Part shown: in pieces, positions 21,006-59,398 of the stretch
How the letters are laid out: the number at the start of each line of letters is the position of its first letter
Numbering within the stretch: the stretch's first letter is position 1
Source: Buchnera aphidicola (Meitanaphis flavogallis)
GTDB taxonomy: Bacteria; Pseudomonadota; Gammaproteobacteria; Enterobacterales; Enterobacteriaceae
NCBI GenBank assembly: GCA_039830035.1
Contig: CP140038.1
Span: 193,397 to 257,396 of the forward strand
Length of the DNA: 64,000 nucleotides
Direction of reading: 5' to 3'
Made by a program: the position numbers and the translations under genes
The notes under the pieces: model-generated
The model's database searches: none
Told to the model about the DNA's origin: nothing
The model's input: only the letters and a program-made list of their open reading frames with translations

Positions 21006-23522
21006 ATGATAATTAAATTCTTTAGTAAATTATTTAGTAATCGTAATGATCGGATATTAGAACAAATTCAAAAGACAATAGAACGTATTAACAGTTTAGA
21101 AAGTAAATTTTCTAAATTATCAGATACAGAATTACGTAATAAAACTGATTTTTTTCGATACTGTTTGAAAAATGGTTATACATTAAATAGTTTATTATCT
21201 GAATCGTTTTCTGTAGTTAGAGAAGCTAGTAAGCGAGTATTTGGAATGCGTCATTTTGATGTACAATTATTGGGTGGAATTGTATTACACCATAGATGTA
21301 TTGCAGAAATGAGGACAGGAGAAGGGAAGACTTTAACAGCTACGTTGCCAGCATATTTGAATGCTTTAGAAGGAAGAGGTGTTCATATTGTTACTATGAA
21401 TGATTATCTTGCCAAGAGAGACGCTGATAACAATAAGATTTTGTTTAATTTTCTTGGTTTGACAGTTGGTCTCAATATTTCAGGTATGTCTCCTGAATTA
21501 AAACGAATAGCTTATTCTTCTGATATAACATATGGTACTAATAATGAATATAGTTTTGATTATTTAAGAGATAATATGGTGTTCGATAAAAAAGATAGAG
21601 TACAAAGAAGTTTAAATTTTGCATTGATAGATGAAGTTGACTCTATATTAATAGATGAAGCACGTACACCGCTAATAATTTCTAAAGATTTGAAAGATAG
21701 CTCAGAGCTCTATTTTAAAATTAATAAAATTGTGCCTAAATTAAGATCTCAAAAACAAGAAGATTCAGATATATCTTTTGGAATAGGGCATTTTTTTATT
21801 GATGAAAAACAACGTCAAGTTAGTTTGACTGAAAAAGGTTTAATAGAAATTGAACAGTGGTTATTAAAAGAAAACTTGATAAAAAGTGCAGAGTCATTAT
21901 ATTCTTCTAAAAATATTATTTTAATGCATCATGTTATAGCAGCTTTACGCGCTCACAACTTGTTTTTTAAAAATGTAGACTATATTGTTAAAAATAAAAA
22001 TGTAGTTATTGTAGACGAACATACTGGTCGGACTATGGAAGGAAAAAGATGGTCAGATGGTTTGCATCAAGCAATAGAAGCAAAAGAAAAAGTAAAGATA
22101 AAAAGTGAAAGTGAAACATTAGCATCAATTACTTTTCAAAATTATTTTCGATTATATAACAAGTTATCGGGGATGACTGGTACTGCTATTACAGAAGCAT
22201 ATGAGTTACGTTCTATTTATAATTTAGATACGGTTGTTATACCAACGAATCGTCCTATGATACGTAATGATATGCCTGATTTAGTTTATATGACTGAATT
22301 AGAAAAAATAGATGCAATTATAAAAGATATTCAGACATGTATTAAGCGGAATCAACCTGTGTTAGTAGGAACGGTATCTATTAAAAAATCTGAGTTAATT
22401 TCTAAACGCTTAGTACAATTAGGTATTAAACATAATGTTTTAAATGCAAATTTTCATTCTCAGGAAGCAGATATTATTGCTCAAGCAGGAAAATTAAAAG
22501 CAGTTACTATTGCTACTAATATGGCAGGACGAGGTACTGATATAGTATTAGGTGGTAGTTTAGTATTGGACTTCATTAAGAAAAAGATGTTTAATGAGAA
22601 AAGAATACGAGATATTCAAGATGAATGGAAAAAAGAACATGATCTCGTTTTAAAATCTGGTGGATTGCATATAATAGGAACAGAAAGACATGAGTCTAGA
22701 AGAATTGATAATCAATTAAGAGGTCGATCTGGTCGTCAAGGTGATGTTGGTTCTTCTCGATTTTACTTGTCTATGGAAGATTCTTTAATGCGAATTTTTT
22801 CTTCAGACCGCATTATTAGTATCATGAAAGCATTAGGGATAAAACATGGAGAAGCTATTACTCATTCTTTTATTACAAAAGCAATTTCTAATGCTCAAAA
22901 AAAAGTTGAAAATCAAAATTTTGATATTCGTAAACAACTACTAGAATATGATGATATTGCAAATGAACAACGTCGTATTATTTATTATCAAAGAAATTGT
23001 ATAATTGATTCTGAAGACATTAGCGATGTTATTAAAAGAATTTCCTATGATATATTTATTGATGTTATCAACAAATATATAAAAAAAGGTTCTTTGAAAG
23101 AAACATGGAAAACATCTAAATTAGAATTATGTTTGTATAATAATTTTAATTTAGTTTGTCCAATTGTACAATGGTTACACGATGATAATACGCTGTATGA
23201 AGAAGAATTAACTAAAAGAATTTTAAAATTTGCTAATATGAGTTATAGAAGAAAACGGGATTTAGTTGGAACGAAAAATATGAACCAACTTGAAAAATCA
23301 ATAATGATTGAAACGTTAGATATATTTTGGAAAGAGCATTTATCAGCTATGGAATGTTTACGTCAGGGTATTCATTTACGAAGTTACGCACAAAAAGACC
23401 CTAAACAAGAATATAAAAGAGAGTCATTTGTAATGTTTTCTTCTATGTTAAAATTATTGAAACAAGAAGTAGTGTCTATTTTATTTAAAATTAATTTTGT
23501 TAATAAAAATCATCATACATAA
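21006..23522 (+). CDS. secA: Preprotein translocase ATPase SecA
   Basis: 838 aa ORF with [40 protein letters not shown] and [10 protein letters not shown] motifs. It is shorter at the C-terminus than E. coli SecA. Confidence 0.96.
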
Positions 23523-39849: not shown

Positions 39850-41033
39850 TACAAACCTTGACAAAATTTATTTTTTATTCTTGTTTCAAAGTCTATACGT
39901 AATAATATAGAAATAGCAATAGAAATAATTAATAAACTGGATCCACCATAACTAATGAGTGGTAATGTTAATCCTTTAGTTGGTAATATTCCCACAGTAG
40001 TACCTATGTTAATTAACGTTTGAGATACTAGCCATATTCCAATTGAAAAAGCAAAATAACCGGAAAAAAAATCGTTGTTTTTTAATGCGTTTTTTCCGAT
40101 ATTTATTGCCTTAAAAGAAATAAATAATATCATAGATAATATGATACAAACTCCACAATATCCTAATTCTTCTCCAATAATTGAGAAAATAAAATCAGTA
40201 TGCGCTTCAGGTAAATATTCTAATTTTTGAATAGAATGTCCTAAACCTACTCCAAAAAAATTTCCTCTACCTAAAGCCATCAATGATTGTGTGAGTTGAT
40301 AACCTTTTCCAAATGGATCTTTCCAAGGATTCCAAAATGATAATATTCGTTCACTACGATAAGGTGTAATTATTATTAATAGGATAGTAGTAATGATCCC
40401 TAAAAGTACAATAGGTATAAATTTCCAAATTTGGACTCCTGAAACAAACAATAAAGATAATACAGTTATGAAATATATAGCTACCGTTCCTAAATCAGGT
40501 TCTGTTAATAATAATATCGATATAATACTTATTATTCCTAAAGGTTTTAAAAAACTCCAAAAACTATTCATGATTTCATAACGTTTTTGTGATAAATAAT
40601 TTGATAAATAACAAAAAACAGTAAGTTTAGATAGTTCTCCGGGTTGTATATGTATGAAACTTATTTTTATCCATCTAAAAGAACCATTAATAGGAGTACT
40701 TATTATTAACACGAGTAGTAACATAATGATAGAAATTAAAAGCATTTTGGTACTATAAATTTTCCAAAACATGATAGGAGTTTTAAGAAATATTTTAGTT
40801 AAAAAAAGAACTAATATTAAATATATTATTTCTTTTTTCGTAAAAAATAATAAATCTCCATATATATGACTAGCTATTGGTATAGAAGCAGAAGTTACCA
40901 TAATTAATCCGATTAATAGTAAACTTATAGTACACCATACTAACTGAGAATCGTATAATTTTGGTTCGTAGTGCGTTTTATTTTTTTTTAAAATTTTTTT
41001 TACTGTGTTTAATAATAAATACTTTATTTTCAT
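39849..41033 (-). CDS. ftsW: Peptidoglycan glycosyltransferase / lipid II flippase FtsW (SEDS family)
   Basis: 394 aa polytopic membrane protein (FQPGELSKL-like IQPGELSKL, PEAHTDFIFSIIGEELG, LPLISYGGSS). Its start overlaps the murD stop as ATGA. Confidence 0.93.
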   Translation of the reverse strand: MKIKYLLLNTVKKILKKNKTHYEPKLYDSQLVWCTISLLLIGLIMVTSASIPIASHIYGDLLFFTKKEIIYLILVLFLTKIFLKTPIMFWKIYSTKMLLISIIMLLLVLIISTPINGSFRWIKISFIHIQPGELSKLTVFCYLSNYLSQKRYEIMNSFWSFLKPLGIISIISILLLTEPDLGTVAIYFITVLSLLFVSGVQIWKFIPIVLLGIITTILLIIITPYRSERILSFWNPWKDPFGKGYQLTQSLMALGRGNFFGVGLGHSIQKLEYLPEAHTDFIFSIIGEELGYCGVCIILSMILFISFKAINIGKNALKNNDFFSGYFAFSIGIWLVSQTLINIGTTVGILPTKGLTLPLISYGGSSLLIISIAISILLRIDFETRIKNKFCQGL

Positions 41034-42360
41034 GAATATAGTTCTTCTATTAACTTTACAAAAGTATTACCACGTTCTTCAAAATTAGAAAATTGATCTA
41101 AACTACTACAAGAAGGAGATAATAATACTACATCACCAGATTTTACTATGTTTTTTATAAAATGTATTACGTTTTCTAATGTATTGAAACATATTGATTT
41201 TTTTGGATATAATGAGAAAAGTATTTTTTTACTTCTTCCATAACAATAAATAATTATTTTTTCATCTTTTAAATAAGGTTTTAATAAAGAAAAATTGGCT
41301 AATTTCCCATCTCCTCCTAATATTAATCTTATTTTCCCTTTTACATAAGGTAAAATATTGTTGATTGCTGATTGCGTACTTCCAATGTTTGTAGATTTAG
41401 AGTCATTAATCCATGTTATATTGTTTTTTTTATATGTTAGTTGAAATCTATGAGGTAATCCTAAAAATTCTTTTAATGCTACTAAGCTAGTGTAAATATT
41501 AACTTTTAAAATATGAACTATTGATAAAGCAGATAATGCATTAATATAATTATGTTGACCTGATATAAGTAATTTATCAACATTTAATAATTTTTCTTTG
41601 TTATAGCATAGCCATACATTACGATTTTTTCTACATAGATTATATTCTCCTTTATCAATTCCAAATGTAATGTTAGGTTGTTTTTTAATTTTCGCATTAA
41701 ATGATAAATGGTCTTCTAAATTTAAAATAGATACTTCGGCTTGATTATATATTTTTAACTTATGTTTGACATATTCTGTAATACCTAATGGATATCGATC
41801 CATATGATCTGAACTGATATTAAGTACAGTAGCAACTTTTGCTTTTAAATTCAAAGTAGTTTCTAGCTGAAAACTGGATAATTCTAATATGTATAATTCT
41901 GAGGGATCATTAAGTATATTTAATGCAGGAATTCCTATATTACCACCTACGCGTACTTTAAATCCAGCTAGTTGTAGTATATTTCTTACCATCATAGTCA
42001 CTGTACTTTTTCCATTTGAACCAGTAATAGCAATTATCGGGGTTTTGGTTTCTCTGACAAATAATTCAATATCTCCAATTATTTCAATTTTGTTTTTTTT
42101 GGCATATATTAACGCTGGATGAAATAATTGTATACCAGGACTTGTGATAATTAAATCGGATTCTTGAATCCATGGATAATATATTGAACCTACATGATAT
42201 TGTATATTTTTTAAACATTGTACATTATGGATGTATTTGGGATTTTTGTTAAAGTCCATAATTTTAGGATAAATATTTCGCGATATAAAAAAATGTAGAC
42301 AGGATATGCCTGTTAATCCCATTCCAAATATTAGTATTTTTTTTTATAATAATTATACAT
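41030..42360 (-). CDS. murD: UDP-N-acetylmuramoylalanine--D-glutamate ligase, with the frame broken at an A9 tract in codons 6-8
   Basis: The track ORF (41030-42322) starts mid-motif at MGLTGISC. Upstream in the same frame is KKILIFG, preceded by a stop. A different frame has ATG 42360 (MYNYYKKK), 2 nt after the mraY stop. Joined at A9, the sequence reads MYNYYKKKILIFGMGLTGISC, compare E. coli [21 protein letters not shown]. Confidence 0.85.
42337..42345 (-). repeat. A9 (sense-strand) homopolymer at the murD frameshift site
   Basis: Nine T on the plus strand, counted directly. One extra A restores the frame. Confidence 0.9.
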
Positions 42361-42362
42361 TT

Positions 42363-43442
42363 CTAATTGACCTTAAATATGAAAGAACATCCTAGCAACA
42401 TAAACACTAAAGATATAATCCAAAATCTTACTGCTATTTTTGGTTCTGGGCAACCTTTTAATTCGTAGTGATGATGAATAGGTGTCATTTTGAATATTCT
42501 TTTTTTCTTTAACTTAAAGTATGTAACTTGAATTATGACTGATATAGTTTCAAATATAAAAATTCCACTCATAATAAAAAATATTATTTCTTGGTGTAGT
42601 AGTATTGCTATTATTCCTATCACCCCTCCTAAAGGTAGAGACCCTACATCACCCATAAATATTTGTGCTGGATAGGCATTAAACCATAAAAATCCTAATC
42701 CTGATCCTATAACGGCTGAGCAAAGAATAGTTAATTCTGCAATACTAGGAATATATACAATATTAAAATGTGTTGAATGGTGTAAATTTCCAGAAATAAA
42801 TGATAGTAGATATAATCCTATAGTTATTAAGATGACAGGAACAATAGCTAACCCATCTAATCCGTCTGTTAAATTTACAGCGTTACTAAAACCTATCAAG
42901 ATAATATATGACAAAAATATATGTATTATACCTATGTTTATAACAATATTTTTTTGGATAGGGCATATTAATTGAATTATAAAATTGTTTTTATTGTTAT
43001 AATAAATTAAAATAATAACAAGAATAGTAATTATAGATAAAAAAAATAATTTCCATTGAGGTCGTAAACCTGTAGACGTGTTAAAGTAAATTTTTTTATA
43101 ATCATCTATGAATCCTACTATGCCAAATCCTATTAAAATCATTAGTGCATACCATATGTATATGTTTGATAAATTAGACCATAATAAAGTAGATATAATG
43201 ATAGAAGATAATATAAGTATTCCTCCCATAGTAGGTGTATATTTTTTGTTAATATGTATTTTAGGTCCATTACTTCGAATAGTTTGATACATTTGGTGTT
43301 TTTTTAAAAATTTGATTAGGTATGATCCTACTATTAGAGAAAAAAATAGTGACGTTAGTAAACTAATAATAGAACGATAAATTAAATATGATGTCTTATC
43401 AAAATTTGTGTGAAAATAGTATTTAATAATGAATTCAATCAT
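42363..43442 (-). CDS. mraY: Phospho-N-acetylmuramoyl-pentapeptide transferase
   Basis: MIEFIIKYY...TPTMGGILIL...NAVNLTDGLDGLA...GDVGSLPLGG motifs. ATG 43442 has GAGGAA 8 nt upstream. The track starts at TTG 43457. Confidence 0.94.
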   Translation of the reverse strand: MIEFIIKYYFHTNFDKTSYLIYRSIISLLTSLFFSLIVGSYLIKFLKKHQMYQTIRSNGPKIHINKKYTPTMGGILILSSIIISTLLWSNLSNIYIWYALMILIGFGIVGFIDDYKKIYFNTSTGLRPQWKLFFLSIITILVIILIYYNNKNNFIIQLICPIQKNIVINIGIIHIFLSYIILIGFSNAVNLTDGLDGLAIVPVILITIGLYLLSFISGNLHHSTHFNIVYIPSIAELTILCSAVIGSGLGFLWFNAYPAQIFMGDVGSLPLGGVIGIIAILLHQEIIFFIMSGIFIFETISVIIQVTYFKLKKKRIFKMTPIHHHYELKGCPEPKIAVRFWIISLVFMLLGCSFIFKVN

Positions 43443-44811
43443 AATTACATTCCTCAACTAATTTTTTTACTATTCTTTCTAGATTTTCGCTTCTAGATCC
43501 TTTAATTAAAATTGTAATTTTTTCATACATAAAAATTTTTTTAGTTAAATCTTTAATTAGTGTATTAATATTAGTGTAATGGTTTCCTTTTTTACTATTA
43601 ATACTGATAGATTTACTTAATTTTCCAATGCTCATAACTTCGTTTATATCAGATATGTAAATGACATTACCAATTATTTTATGATACATAGTACTCATTT
43701 TTCCTAATTCAGACATATCACCAGATACAAAAATTTTATATCCAGGCATGTTTTCTAACACTTTAATTGCTACAATCATTGATGCAACATTAGCATTGTA
43801 AGTATCGTTTATAATAGTTTTATGTTGGCTTAGTGTGATAGTTTCTAATCTACCTGAAAGTATTGGAATTTTAGATAATCCGAGTTGAATGCATTGAAGT
43901 GGAATGTTTAATGTTATTGCTATAGCGGCTGCAGCTAGAGCATTAGAAATATTGTGAAATCCAAGCAAAGGCAAATTAACATTTATAACTCCATTCGGAG
44001 AATGTAGAATGAAGGATGAGCCTGTATTATCAATAACGATATTGCTTGCAAAGAATTGACTTTTTTTTTTTATTGAAAACCAAATAATGTTTTGGCTGTT
44101 TATGTTTTTTTTCCATCTTGACCAATGATGACTATCAGCATTAAATATAGCTGTACCAGTTTTAGGTAATGTACAAAGAATTTCTTGTTTTGATTTAGAG
44201 ATTCCTAATAAAGATTTAAATCCATCTAAATGCGAATAATAAATGTTGTTTATTAATGCAATATTAGGATTTGTTAATTTTGTTGCATATAAAATTTCTT
44301 TAGGATGATTAGCTCCTATTTCAATAACAGCATATTTATATGATAGATCAAGATTTAGTAGAGTTAATGGTACTCCAATATTATTGTTAAAATTTTTAAA
44401 GGTAGATAAAGTTTTTCCATAACATTGCAAGATAGAAGTAGTAATTTCTTTTACAGATGTTTTTCCAGAAGATCCAGTTAATGCTATAATACTAGCATTA
44501 CTTTGTTGTCTAATCCAAAATGCTATATTTCCTAGTGCTAAAGTAGTATTTTGCACAACTATTTGTGGTAGCTTGATATCAAGTTTTTTTTCTAATACTA
44601 CTGCTGTAGCTCCTTTTTTCATTGCTGCATAAACGAAATTATGTGCATCGAAATTTTTTCCGATCAAAGCAATAAATAAACATCCTGGAGTAATTGTTCT
44701 TGAATCAGTACTTATAGCATGAAAAATTAAGTTATTTATTTTTACATTATTTTTGTTAAAAAAATAACCTTTTGTGATACGACATATTTGATAAAAAGAT
44801 ATTGGGATCAT
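43435..44811 (-). CDS. murF: UDP-N-acetylmuramoyl-tripeptide--D-alanyl-D-alanine ligase
   Basis: 458 aa ORF with the ALTGSSGKTSVKE P-loop. It is Mur-ligase colinear and contains an in-frame A11 tract (44061-44071). Confidence 0.93.
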   Translation of the reverse strand: MIPISFYQICRITKGYFFNKNNVKINNLIFHAISTDSRTITPGCLFIALIGKNFDAHNFVYAAMKKGATAVVLEKKLDIKLPQIVVQNTTLALGNIAFWIRQQSNASIIALTGSSGKTSVKEITTSILQCYGKTLSTFKNFNNNIGVPLTLLNLDLSYKYAVIEIGANHPKEILYATKLTNPNIALINNIYYSHLDGFKSLLGISKSKQEILCTLPKTGTAIFNADSHHWSRWKKNINSQNIIWFSIKKKSQFFASNIVIDNTGSSFILHSPNGVINVNLPLLGFHNISNALAAAAIAITLNIPLQCIQLGLSKIPILSGRLETITLSQHKTIINDTYNANVASMIVAIKVLENMPGYKIFVSGDMSELGKMSTMYHKIIGNVIYISDINEVMSIGKLSKSISINSKKGNHYTNINTLIKDLTKKIFMYEKITILIKGSRSENLERIVKKLVEECNYD

Positions 44812-44813
44812 AT

Positions 44814-46297
44814 TTATTTTTCCAATAGTTTTTTAATTGTTTCATAGTCAGAAAAATAATAAGTTTTATTTTTTATTATTTGATATTTTTCATGACCTTT
44901 TCCTAATACAACTACACAGTCATTGATGTTAGCATTCATTATGGCAAATTTGATTGCTTGTTTTCGATCCAATATAATATGTATATTTTTTTTATTTTGA
45001 ATGTTTTGTGTGATATCTTTTATAATTTCTTTTGGATTCTCGTTTCTGGGATTGTCATTAGTTAGAACGATTTTATTAGCAATTTTTTCAGAAATCTTTC
45101 CCATTAGGGATCTCTTTAATTTGTCTCTATTTCCTCCGCATCCAAATACACACCATACATTGTGATGATATATTTTACGAATAGTTTGTAATACATTTTT
45201 AAAAGCGTCTTCATTATGTGCATAATCAATGATAATGTTTGGTTTATTTGGAATTTTAAGAGATTGCATTCTTCCAGGAACGGCTATTATATATTCGCAT
45301 ACGTCTATCAAGCAAGATAGTGAAAACCCCAAGTTTAATAATGCCACTAAAGCTAGTAGTAAATTAGTAACGTTAAAGTTTCCAATTAATTGGCTTTTTA
45401 ACAATCCTTTTCCCCAACTAGATTTAAAGTAAATGTAAGTATAATTTGTATTATATATTATACGATATGCGTGTACCCATCGTTTAAATAATGAGTAATT
45501 AAAATTTTTATTTATACTTACGACGATAGTTCTTTTTTTAGATAATTTTTTTGTCCATAGTTTTCCAATATGATTATCTATATTAATTATGAATGTTTTA
45601 ATTTTGTTTTTAGAAAAAAAAGTCCATTTTGCTTTAATATAGTTTTCTATAGTTTTGTGATAGTCTAAGTGGTCTGATGTAATGTTTGTCAAAATTGCCA
45701 TAGAAAAATTTAAATTTGACACTCTATGTTGTATGATTCCATGCGAAGATATTTCCATAGCAATTGTTTTTATATCGTTTATTAACATTTCTTTTAAGAA
45801 TTTTTGTATATTTATAGGAGAATCAGTTGTATTTACAGATGGTTTTAGATCGTTGTAAGTTCCATTCCCTAGACTTCCCATAATTCCTATTCTTTGGTTT
45901 AATAAGTAATTCCATTGAGCAATAATATGAGTCACAGTACTTTTTCCATTAGTTCCAGTGACTCCAATAAGTGTTAATTCTTCATTTACTTCATAATATC
46001 TATTGGATATTTTGGATAAATTTTTAGATAATTTTAAAAAATAAATTACTGGAATGTGTTTATTTTTATATGTTATATGTCCATGATATTCTTTTTTTTT
46101 GTTTCGCAAAGAATAGCTATTGCTCCATTATCAATAGCTTTTTTTATAAATTGTCGTCCATGAAATATATTTCCTTGTAGTGCGCAGAATAAGTTTCCTG
46201 TAGTAACTTTTCGACTATCTGATGCTATTCCAGTTATATTATATGATTGTGTTATATTCATCCAAGGTTGTAATAGGGTTTGTAGGTTATGTTTCAT
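44814..46297 (-). pseudogene. murE: UDP-N-acetylmuramoyl-L-alanyl-D-glutamate--2,6-diaminopimelate ligase, split by a frameshift at an A9 tract (possibly rescued by slippage)
   Basis: Two track ORFs (46073-46297 and 44814-46109) overlap by 37 nt in different frames. The first, MKHNLQTLLQPWM...IASDSRKVTTGNLFCALQG...AIAILCETKKK, matches the MurE N-terminus. The second carries GVTGTNGKST, DNPRNE and the rest. The break is at A9 (46092-46100). Confidence 0.9.
46092..46100 (-). repeat. A9 (sense-strand) homopolymer at the murE frameshift site
   Basis: Nine T on the plus strand between c46091 and g46101. One extra A gives ETKKKEYHGHITYKNKHIPVIYF. Confidence 0.9.
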
Positions 46298-47729
46298 TTT
46301 TACTCCAAAATTTTGTGATGTATTTAATATATAAATAAATTATCAGGTTGAATATTAATAATTTTTAATGCAAAACTCATAATTGTACTAAATACTGGAG
46401 CTGAAATAGTTCCTCCATAGTATTGTCCTGCTCGTGGATCATTAATCATCACAAGCAAAGAAAATTGTGGATTGCTAATTGGAGCAAGTCCTACTGCATA
46501 TGATACGTATCTATTTACGTATTTTCCGTTTGAATTGACTTTTTTTGCAGTACCCGTCTTTACAGCAACTTTATAGCCTTTAATGGCTGCTTTTACTCCT
46601 ACGCCTCCTGGCTGAGTTACTGATTCGAGCATGTTTAATACGATTTTTACTAAAGATTTTGAAAATATTCGTTTTTCGTTGTTTTTGTTATTAGTTTTAA
46701 TAATAGATAATGGTTTGTATAATCCATATCTACCCATAATTGTGTATACGTTAACCAATTGTAGTGGTGTAACCATCAATCCATATCCAAAAGAAAATGT
46801 TACTTTATCTAAGTTAGACCAATGTTTTTTTTTGGGGTAAATTCCTTTTTTTTCTCCTATCAATCCTGAATTTGTCGATTTTCCTAAGCCAAATCTAGAA
46901 TAAATATCAATTAATTCAGATTCTGACATAGATAGTGCTATTTTAGATACACCTGTATTGCTTGATTTTTTCAAAATATCGGTAACTGATAATTGTCTGT
47001 TATATGAAACATCTTTTATTACGTGTTTATCTATTATAAAAGGTGTTGTGTCAATAATAGATTTTGGAGTTATTATTTTTTTTTGCAATGCTTTCATAAT
47101 TACCATTGGTTTAACTGTTGATCCAGGCTCAAATACGTCAGTCACGGCTCTGTTACGAATTAAATCCATAGATACTTTTTTTAAATTATTTGGATTATAT
47201 GTAGGGCTATTGACCATAGCTAGGATTTCTCCAGTTTTAATATTTGTTAAAATAGCCGTTCCAGATTGAGCTTTATGAAAACTAACAGCATGACTTAATT
47301 CGCGATATATAATCGTTTGTAATCTTATGTCTATACTAAGATTTATATTGCGTGGCGCATTTTTTTTAATTAATGAAACATTTTCAATAATGTTTCCAAA
47401 CTTGTCGGTTCTAATTTTTCTTTTACCTGGAGCTCCTTGAAGTATTTTGTTAAAACTCTTTTCTATTCCTTCGATGCCTATTCCATCTGTGTTGGTGAAT
47501 CCAATTAATTGCGAAACTATTTTTCCAGAAGGGTAGTATCGCTTAAAATCTTCAACAATATATACACCTGGTAAGTTTAATTTTTTTATGTATTCTCCAA
47601 TTTCTGGACTAACTTTTCGTGCTAGATATGTAAAACGATTGTTTTTAAAATGATTAATTTTATATATAATTTTTTCTAGAGGAGTGGATAGTACTTTCGA
47701 TAATGCTTTCCACTTTGCATTTATAACTA

Positions 47730-47739
47730 TTTTTTTTTT
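47730..47739 (-). repeat. A10 (sense-strand) homopolymer at the second ftsI frameshift site
   Basis: Ten T on the plus strand. As written, the middle frame ends ...TCA AAA AAA AAA TAG. One extra A continues as ATA GTT ATA AAT GCA AAG TGG. Confidence 0.9.
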
Positions 47740-58666: not shown

Positions 58667-59398
58667 ATGAAAAAAAAAAATAATAAAGTATTTAAATTTA
58701 AACGTATATTAATAAAATTGAGTGGTGAATCTTTACAAGGTAGTAACAAATTTGGAGTAGATGTAGATGCATTAAATTGTATTATAAAAGAAATAAAAGA
58801 TATTGCGAATTTAGGGATACAAGTAGGTATTGTTGTCGGTGGAGGAAATATATTTCGAGGAAAGAAATTAAAAAATTTTGGTATTAATAAAATTGTTTCT
58901 GATAATGTAGGTATGTTATCTACTATTATTAATGGATTGATATTGTGTGATTCCATGAAAAAAATGAATCTTAATGCGCATTTAATGTCTTCAATTCCAA
59001 TTGGTTCAATATGCGAAATTTATCACTATGAAAAAGCTATAAATTGGTTGAAAAATAGATATGTAGTAATATTTTCTGGAGGTTTAGGAAATCCATGTTT
59101 TACTACAGATTCAGCAGCTTGTTTACGAGCAATAGAAATAAAAGCTGATATTATTTTAAAAGGCACTAAAGTTAACGGAGTATATTCTAGTGATCCAAAA
59201 AAAAATATTAATCCGGTATTATATAAAACAATAACCTATGATGAAGCATTAACTAAAGAATTGCAAGTTATGGATTTATCTGCTTTTATATTAGCTCGAG
59301 ATCACAAATTGCCAATTTGTATTTTTAATATATATAATCCAGGGATTTTACGCCGGATTGTACAAGGTAAACGAGAAGGAACGTTGATTAAATTTTAG
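58667..59398 (+). CDS. pyrH: UMP kinase
   Basis: 243 aa ORF with RILIKLSGESL and GGGNIFRG motifs. Codons 2-5 are an in-frame A11 tract. Confidence 0.95.
   Translation: MKKKNNKVFKFKRILIKLSGESLQGSNKFGVDVDALNCIIKEIKDIANLGIQVGIVVGGGNIFRGKKLKNFGINKIVSDNVGMLSTIINGLILCDSMKKMNLNAHLMSSIPIGSICEIYHYEKAINWLKNRYVVIFSGGLGNPCFTTDSAACLRAIEIKADIILKGTKVNGVYSSDPKKNINPVLYKTITYDEALTKELQVMDLSAFILARDHKLPICIFNIYNPGILRRIVQGKREGTLIKF

Follow-up and report, generated by a model that had tools for sequence, protein, structure and literature searches.

A one-base deficit in an A9 run cuts the murD start codon off from its gene in Buchnera of Rhus-gall aphids and is probably bypassed by slippage

Slippage rescue of frameshifted cell-wall genes has already been described for Buchnera. 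In such genes, 12–50% of the transcripts are corrected via slippage at long poly(A) runs, according to the account of Tamas et al. (2008) contained in PMC5009743. Frameshifts that are conserved between species and owe their full-length product to slippage have also been reported (PMC3017870). In bacterial slippage, nine As or Ts suffice, and runs of this length give mRNAs with up to six extra nucleotides (PMC5009743); in Buchnera transcripts, single-base insertions dominate, are nearly confined to A/T runs, and become exponentially more frequent as the runs lengthen (PMC5574713). Here we analyze murD in a stretch of 64,000 nucleotides (hereafter the window) from Buchnera aphidicola (Meitanaphis flavogallis; CP140038.1), whose assembly is a single contig of 619,106 bp with 26% G+C. 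A run of nine As (A9), one base short of keeping the frame, separates the start codon of this gene from its body. The anatomy of the locus and its conservation among relatives make it probable that the break is real and inherited, and that full-length MurD is made by slippage at A9, with translation starting from the ancestral ATG at 42360.

The mraY–murD junction and the MurD N-terminus

The features of this junction lie on the minus strand and are given in window coordinates. The gene upstream of murD in the operon, mraY (42363–43457; TIGR00445, 389.8 bits), ends with a TAG at 42365–42363, and the ancestral murD start codon, ATG (42358–42360), lies two nucleotides past it. The last codons of mraY, AAG GTC, contain an AAGG (42374–42371) located 10 nt before this ATG, as in Escherichia coli; the E. 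coli-type relatives possess GAAGGT, 10 nt, and then ATG at the start of murD. The ATG is kept 0–2 nt past the mraY stop in all 11 members of the genus and in the free-living relatives.

From position 42360, ATG (42360–42358) is followed by TAT AAT TAT TAT AAA AAA AAA TAC TAA, which encodes MYNYYKKKY*. The first eight codons, M Y N Y Y K K K (42337–42360), constitute the first segment of murD and are homologous to MADYQGKK/N of free-living MurD. The A9 run (42337–42345; T9 on the plus strand) is the site of the one-base deficit, and A10 would be in frame. The TAA closing the unshifted nine-codon product MYNYYKKKY (42331–42333) is positioned 8 nt ahead of an internal ATG (42320–42322), which encodes Met14 of the full-length protein. 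The body frame reads TAA AAA AAA ATA CTA ATA TTT GGA ATG (the last codon being 42322–42320), or *KKILIFG-MGLTG, and its TAA (42344–42346) shuts the frame seven codons upstream of Met14. The second segment, I L I F G M G L T G... (41030–42337, with the stop at 41032–41030), is entered by re-reading or adding one A. The joined coding sequence can thus be written as complement(join(41030..42337,42337..42360)); one additional A in the run joins both parts into a MurD of 443 residues with the N-terminus MYNYYKKKILIFGMGLTGISC (MYNYYKKKILIFGMGLTG, also quoted as MYNYYKKKILIFG, MYNYYKKKILIFGMGLTGISCLHFFISR). An example of a Lys-C peptide expected from the N-terminus of slippage-made MurD is ILIFGMGLTGISCLHFFISR. 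A sequence-only reading of the window had placed the start codon at the expected operon position, cut off from the murD body by a one-base deficit in A9, and direct reading of the DNA bears this out, as it does every one of the coordinates and translations given there (ATG at 42360, MYNYYKKKY*, A9 at 42337–42345, and KKILIFG-MGLTG).

The open reading frame (ORF) at 41030–42322, 430 residues long from Met14, is MurD: it scores 363.7 bits against TIGR01087, whose curated equivalog cut-off is 211.95 bits, and matches profile positions 8–440 of 441. When KKILIFG is included, the score rises to 375 bits and the match covers positions 1–440. Likewise, PF21799 (MurD-like_N) is covered from 1 to 88 of its 88 positions with KKILIFG, whereas the ORF from Met14 begins only at position 8 of this profile. 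PF08245 and PF02875 are matched as well, giving the three-domain architecture of a Mur ligase, in which the N-terminal domain is complete only with the upstream in-frame codons. Residues 2–442 of the repaired MurD align to residues 2–438 of E. coli MurD (2jff) with an E-value of 7.5e-134 and no gap at the N-terminus, and the identity to E. coli-type MurD is 48%. With one A added, the N-terminus in the Rhus-gall symbionts has exactly the E. coli length, 13 residues ahead of the Met14 position, and the E. coli-type N-terminus is also present in relatives. The claim that the repaired N-terminus matches that of E. coli MurD residue for residue therefore agrees with the alignment to 2jff.

An AlphaFold model was built for the stop-to-stop murD frame of the window itself, with an alignment of 41 free-living MurD sequences. 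The mean predicted local distance difference test score (pLDDT) of the model was 91, and it was 95 across the first ten residues. In the model, ILIF forms the first strand (beta-1, E3-6), which leads to the GMGLTG loop and a helix at 10-20, as the sequence-only reading had supposed in assigning the upstream KKILIFG to the completion of the N-terminal strand. This strand is encoded in all 80 of the free-living MurD genes examined. Domain 1 of MurD consists of a five-stranded sheet and four helices, and Leu15 and Thr16, in the loop just past strand beta-1, bind the substrate UDP-MurNAc-L-Ala (UMA) (PMC9780078). A protein started at Met14 would begin inside this loop without the strand, and the general architecture of such folds suggests that the domain would be destabilized. 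The profiles, the modelled strand, and the 80 free-living MurD sequences together indicate that KKILIFG is needed for a complete MurD N-terminus.

Conservation of the break and selection on the leader

The relatives compared were the other ten members of the GTDB genus, which is made up of nine Rhus-gall-aphid Buchnera and a pair consisting of Chaetogeoica yunlongensis (G006) and G002, which we take to be Baizongia pistaciae. An identical layout was found in eight genomes: Meitanaphis flavogallis, Kaburagia rhusicola ensigallis (G005), Meitanaphis elongallis (G010), Melaphis rhois (G007), Nurudea yanoniella (G001), Nurudea shiraii (G003), Floraphis choui (G004), and G009, which is probably Schlechtendalia chinensis. 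In each of them, the ATG lies 0–2 nt past the mraY stop and is followed by four codons, exactly A9, and an out-of-frame (K)KILI[FL]G-MG[LI]TG; the murD body frame spans 436–437 residues from stop to stop. In the outgroup pair, murD is in frame with A7 (M..NYSNKKILIFGMG), and it is also in frame in two other Buchnera-like genera and in all of the free-living relatives examined (MADYQGKKVVIIGLG).

A tree of MraY and MurD groups the nine Rhus-gall genomes together (support 100/99), with the A7 pair as the sister of this clade. The ninth genome, that of Schlechtendalia peitan (G008), is grouped with G009, which bears A9 (support 91/95), and the clade has a polytomy at its base. The S. peitan leader is in frame and contains A11; the alignment attributes this to the insertion of one base, located three bases before the run, and a T-to-A change. 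A repair by insertion outside the run is meaningful only if the upstream ATG is the start. The murD gene of S. peitan is broken again in mid-gene, in its one assembly, at a sense-strand A10 (GTT A10 TCATATTACATTCGGG) approximately at codon 212 after Met14, which needs a +1 shift. The equivalent site in the window is located at approximately 41660–41700, where the gene of M. flavogallis is in frame (AAAAAACAACCT). Each of the nine Rhus-gall murD genes thus requires a +1 slip at one site or another.

Given this pairing and the basal polytomy, a single origin of A9 followed by reversal in S. peitan and two separate origins are equally parsimonious, each requiring two events. The A9 state is common to Melaphis rhois of North America and the Asian genera. 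PMC3174202, citing older work, places the split between Melaphis and Schlechtendalia at 48–70 million years ago (Mya), which, if correct, would make the break tens of millions of years old. All 11 members of the GTDB genus, the in-frame outgroups among them, encode Met (ATG) at residue 14 of MurD, where the other Buchnera genera and all of the free-living relatives examined have Leu. The presence of Met in the in-frame outgroups means that the change from Leu is older than the frameshift, and it may have eased the tolerance of the latter.

The body of the gene shows the marks of purifying selection. No stop or indel occurs in the 430 codons after Met14 in any of the eight genomes, and the pairwise ratios of nonsynonymous to synonymous substitution rates (dN/dS) of 0.09–0.28 are equal to or below those of mraY (0.20–0.36) and ftsW (0.15–0.22). 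The leader, defined as the sequence from the mraY stop to Met14, was set against five true intergenic spacers located within the same 20 kb of these eight genomes, the whole-region comparison being built from gene-anchored segments. The pairwise identity of the leader is 90%, as against 52–62% in the true spacers. Gaps in the leader are confined to the 0–2 nt ahead of the ATG, whereas they account for 15–45% of the spacers. The distance from ATG to ATG is a constant 38 nt, while spacer lengths vary up to 2.5-fold (e.g., 75–190 nt). On the murD tree, the leader required 16 parsimony steps at its 29 sites outside the run, or 0.55 per site, compared to 1.78 in the spacers (ungapped columns) and 1.46 at murD third positions; the average over all murD positions is 0.92. 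Resampling gave P < 1e-5 for 29 spacer or third-position sites changing as little as those of the leader.

The constraint is found on both sides of the run and takes the form expected of codons. Sites 1–24 of the leader required eight steps (P < 1e-5 against spacers), and codons 2–5, upstream of the run, required eight steps in 12 sites, with none at the second position (P = 0.001 against spacers). Eight steps were likewise required at the 14 sites that follow the run (P = 6.5e-5 against spacers), again with no second-position change (P = 0.029); the changes seen there are either synonymous (CTA/TTA, ATA/ATT, and GGA/GGG) or exchange Phe and Leu (TTT/CTT/TTA). When the codons are read in the ATG frame upstream of the run and in the body frame downstream of it, none of the 16 leader steps falls at a second codon position (P = 0.0011). 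The leader thus behaves as coding sequence read in two frames, with purifying selection on either side of the break. Orthologues starting at the internal Met with no conserved coding potential upstream would have spoken against the sequence-only reading; close relatives instead keep that potential, as seen in the layout shared by eight genomes and the constrained leader.

The run itself is also conserved. Its nine positions have undergone no substitution (P = 5e-6 against A-columns of the spacers), and among the 38 A/T runs of at least eight bases in the 20 kb, the murD A9 is the only one whose length is constant throughout the eight genomes. The lengths of ordinary in-frame runs range from 2 to 11, since synonymous changes break these runs up. 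Slippage requires a run without interruptions.

Several other slippery runs are conserved in the dcw cluster. The most length-conserved in the 20 kb after that of murD are the A10 and A9 of ftsI (47730–47739 and 47076–47084, respectively): the lengths of the former in the nine clade members are 10, 10, 9, 10, 11, 10, 10, 10, and 10, and the latter is 9 in eight of the nine. The A9 of murE (46092–46100) is common to only four of the other eight members (nine bases in three and ten in one). Read from its start, mraY contains in-frame stops in M. elongallis from approximately codon 48, and in G009 and S. peitan from approximately codon 152; a run in this gene (43039–43046) is T8 in the window and T9 in the latter two. 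Homopolymer frameshifts in mraY of these three genomes are likely, judging from the sequences.

Artefact, pseudogene, and alternative start sites

Homopolymers are a classic site of sequencing error, and the A9 might be an assembly under-call of a genomic A10 in an ordinary in-frame murD. We consider this exceedingly improbable and reject it on the conservation of the break across separate assemblies. Eight separately assembled genomes agree on exactly A9. The 2024 genomes are de novo SPAdes assemblies, each built from 2x150 Illumina reads of its own aphid sample, and Illumina rarely miscalls a 9-mer at consensus depth. The same truncated calls of 430 or 435 residues recur in the records of other submitters, those of Melaphis rhois (QCI23235.1; genome of 616,452 bp) and G009 (ANF17002.1; 607,835 bp), and where a species has been assembled a second time, and in-frame runs of A10–A11 were assembled elsewhere in the same window. 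In-frame A9–A11 runs of the window include those of murF (44061–44071) and pyrH (58670–58680). This agreement between assemblies supports a genuine A9 strongly, if indirectly. A young pseudogene in a lineage that is abandoning peptidoglycan synthesis is just as improbable. Buchnera of the Lachninae have indeed lost mur genes (PMC11188193), and homopolymer breaks are met elsewhere in the clade, namely the likely ones in mraY of three relatives and the second murD break of S. peitan. However, in eight genomes, the 430 codons contain no further stop or indel, and the dN/dS values are those of intact neighbours. The hosts of the clade that shares the break are cited as having diverged 48–70 Mya; judging from the divergence of the spacers, neutral sequence would not have survived intact for nearly so long. 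On this conservation and the dN/dS values, we reject the pseudogene as well.

The other alternatives concern the start site, on which the public records differ. In the GenBank records QCI23235.1 and ANF17002.1, MurD has 430 residues and starts at Met14; in the RefSeq/PGAP records (WP_261979204.1 and WP_267471149.1) and those of 2024, it has 435 residues, MLILGMG..., and starts at the ATA at the edge of the run. The frameshift is annotated in none of them, in line with the expectation that automated annotation would miss the break and call a truncated MurD. The corresponding codon in the window is the ATA (Ile) at the 3' edge of the run (42337–42335), from which a protein of 435 residues, (f)M-LIFGMGLTG..., would be made with no need for slippage. 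ATA is an allowed start in translation table 11, PGAP uses the equivalent codon in Melaphis rhois and Schlechtendalia-type genomes, and the product would keep the strand residues L-I-F and hence most of beta-1. The codon is conserved in nine of nine clade members, although this conservation is confounded, since the codon also specifies an Ile of the strand and begins with an A that is part of the run. In the bacteria studied, ATA initiates translation very weakly, and nothing resembling a Shine–Dalgarno (SD) element is present at a usable distance upstream. Moreover, a start at ATA fails to account for the conservation of the upstream ATG and the four codons after it, of the exact spacing of 38 nt, and of an A9 without interruptions, or for the restoration of the ATG frame by an insertion in S. 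peitan. We therefore regard it as quite unlikely. No canonical start precedes the Met14 codon (42322–42320) in the open frame, and this codon could be reached by re-initiation after the nine-codon upstream ORF, whose stop, 8 nt ahead, has a geometry that permits termination-reinitiation. Although Met14 is invariant in the genus, as opposed to the Leu of free-living MurD, it is equally conserved in the in-frame species, and its conservation is thus no pointer to its use as a start. The only purines upstream of it are a GGA abutting the ATG. Its product of 430 residues would begin inside the GxGxTG loop without the first domain-1 strand, which is present in the 80 free-living MurD sequences and in both profiles. 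In addition, an untranslated KKILIFG would not be expected to show only synonymous or Phe/Leu changes and no second-position change (P = 6.5e-5 and P = 0.029 as above). A start at Met14 is very unlikely on these grounds. Both sites leave the conserved ATG, codons, spacing, and run length unexplained, and for this reason are unlikely to be the main route, although they may be minor contributors.

Probable slippage at A9 and comparison with known systems

Slippage from the upstream ATG would account for the locus as follows. A one-base deletion would have converted a former in-frame A10 run at codons 6–9 into A9. Translation would still start at the ancestral ATG, coupled to the mraY stop, and a fraction of expression events would gain one extra A at the run, giving a functional MurD of approximately 443 residues. 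The extra A could be gained in two ways: RNA polymerase may slip backward and produce A10 in the mRNA, or the ribosome may undergo a -1 tandem slip on A_AAA_AAA with two Lys-tRNAs. The two routes would yield an identical protein. Unshifted events would yield a peptide of only nine residues, so that the break would cost little. The anatomy of the DNA, the conserved break, the selection in both frames, and the structural part played by the recovered residues are observed here, whereas the occurrence of slippage, its efficiency, and its division between transcription and translation are inferred. The heptamer aaA_AAA_AAA is in phase with the ATG at 42360, and the codon after a -1 slip is ATA.

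Several points weigh against slippage at this site. No stimulatory RNA structure was detected: a 126-nt segment around the site folds at -13.2 kcal/mol (z = +0.69), and 150 of 200 shuffled sequences fold just as well. No well-placed SD-like element for a -1 shift was found, the only candidate being the AAGG, which precedes the run by 25 nt. An A9 is among the shorter runs known for efficient slippage, and the ATA and Met14 codons just downstream in the body frame could also yield some product, although Met14, being present in the in-frame outgroups too, predates the frameshift. Traverse and Ochman observed no frame-restoring transcript error in Buchnera of A. pisum, in a study that gives no rate for A9 (PMC5574713). 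Finally, our statistical tests stand on 29 sites and eight related genomes.

Given the lack of an RNA structure or SD-like stimulator for a ribosomal shift, we favour transcription as the main route of slippage; as a guess, its share relative to that of translation would be roughly 60:40. Throughout the genome, there are 278 A/T runs of 9, 56 of 10, and six of 11, plus one of 26 and one of 32. An edit-and-rescan census of A/T runs of at least eight bases yielded 14 candidate mid-gene breaks; 12 of the 14 need +1, matching the insertion bias of polymerase slippage. Candidate sites in the genome include 21691–21700, 117657–117665, 185758–185768, 373384–373391, 475008–475018, and 617763–617772. 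Separately, the murD stop overlaps the start of ftsW (ATGA, 41030–41033), and translational coupling into ftsW may also fall if most ribosomes leave after the nine-codon peptide.

The fact that all nine genomes need +1, that the repaired S. peitan gene has a new A10 break, and that A9 has been kept even though the insertion of a single A restores the frame raises the possibility that the deficit is retained by selection as a built-in attenuator setting a low output of MurD (and of dcw). We consider this role doubtful. The run has probably remained uninterrupted at its exact length for about 50 million years or more. The public annotation of an essential cell-wall gene can be corrected throughout the clade: its likely product, initiated at the ancestral ATG, has approximately 443 residues and is best annotated as a slippage join. 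How many peptidoglycan genes are tallied as "intact" or "lost" when Buchnera genomes are compared hinges on recognizing such breaks. The wasted product amounts to only nine residues, and symbionts of hosts from two continents keep exactly the same run length along with the frames on either side of it. The site could therefore serve as a natural reporter of the shares of RNA-polymerase and ribosomal slippage at A9 in a symbiont.

Among known systems, the poly(A) class of Buchnera described by Tamas et al. (2008) is the closest in organism group and pathway. According to later accounts, the genes in question belong to the Mur ligase/dcw pathway, lack a single base in a long sense-strand A run, and are otherwise intact and under purifying selection, and the rescue proposed is the addition of extra As to the transcript; the murD locus shares all of these features, with the rescue being conditional here. 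It differs from that class in that the gene is murD, the hosts are Rhus-gall aphids (Fordini), and the run is only A9. The break falls at codons 6–9 and separates only the start codon and eight residues from the body, and so looks like a start-site problem rather than a split gene. Transcript heterogeneity was demonstrated there, whereas the present case is known from DNA.

The ancient homopolymer frameshifts of Blochmannia (Wernegreen 2010; Williams & Wernegreen 2010, PMC3017870) are similarly kept across species in undegraded genes and were read as selection via slippage. They concern another symbiont and other genes; here, the clade has a split cited at 48–70 Mya, and one lineage bears a compensating insertion and a new break. 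In Thermus dnaX and Shigella mxiE (PMC5009743), A9/T9 runs show that nine As or Ts are enough for base addition and a change of frame. Slippage in these genes makes alternative or regulated products from an intact design, whereas in murD it would repair a deletion, and only the shifted product would be useful. The -1 frameshift of E. coli dnaX on A_AAA_AAG resembles the murD site in that the phase of A_AAA_AAA would allow two Lys-tRNAs to slip in tandem, to the same protein product; however, murD possesses neither an SD-like element 10–14 nt upstream nor a downstream stem-loop, and the last base of its heptamer is A, not G. By these likenesses, murD would most likely be a new case in the known Buchnera/Blochmannia class of poly(A)-tract frameshifts bypassed by slippage, distinguished within it by a break that lies at the extreme N-terminus, is conserved very cleanly and deeply, and is consistently mis-annotated in public records.

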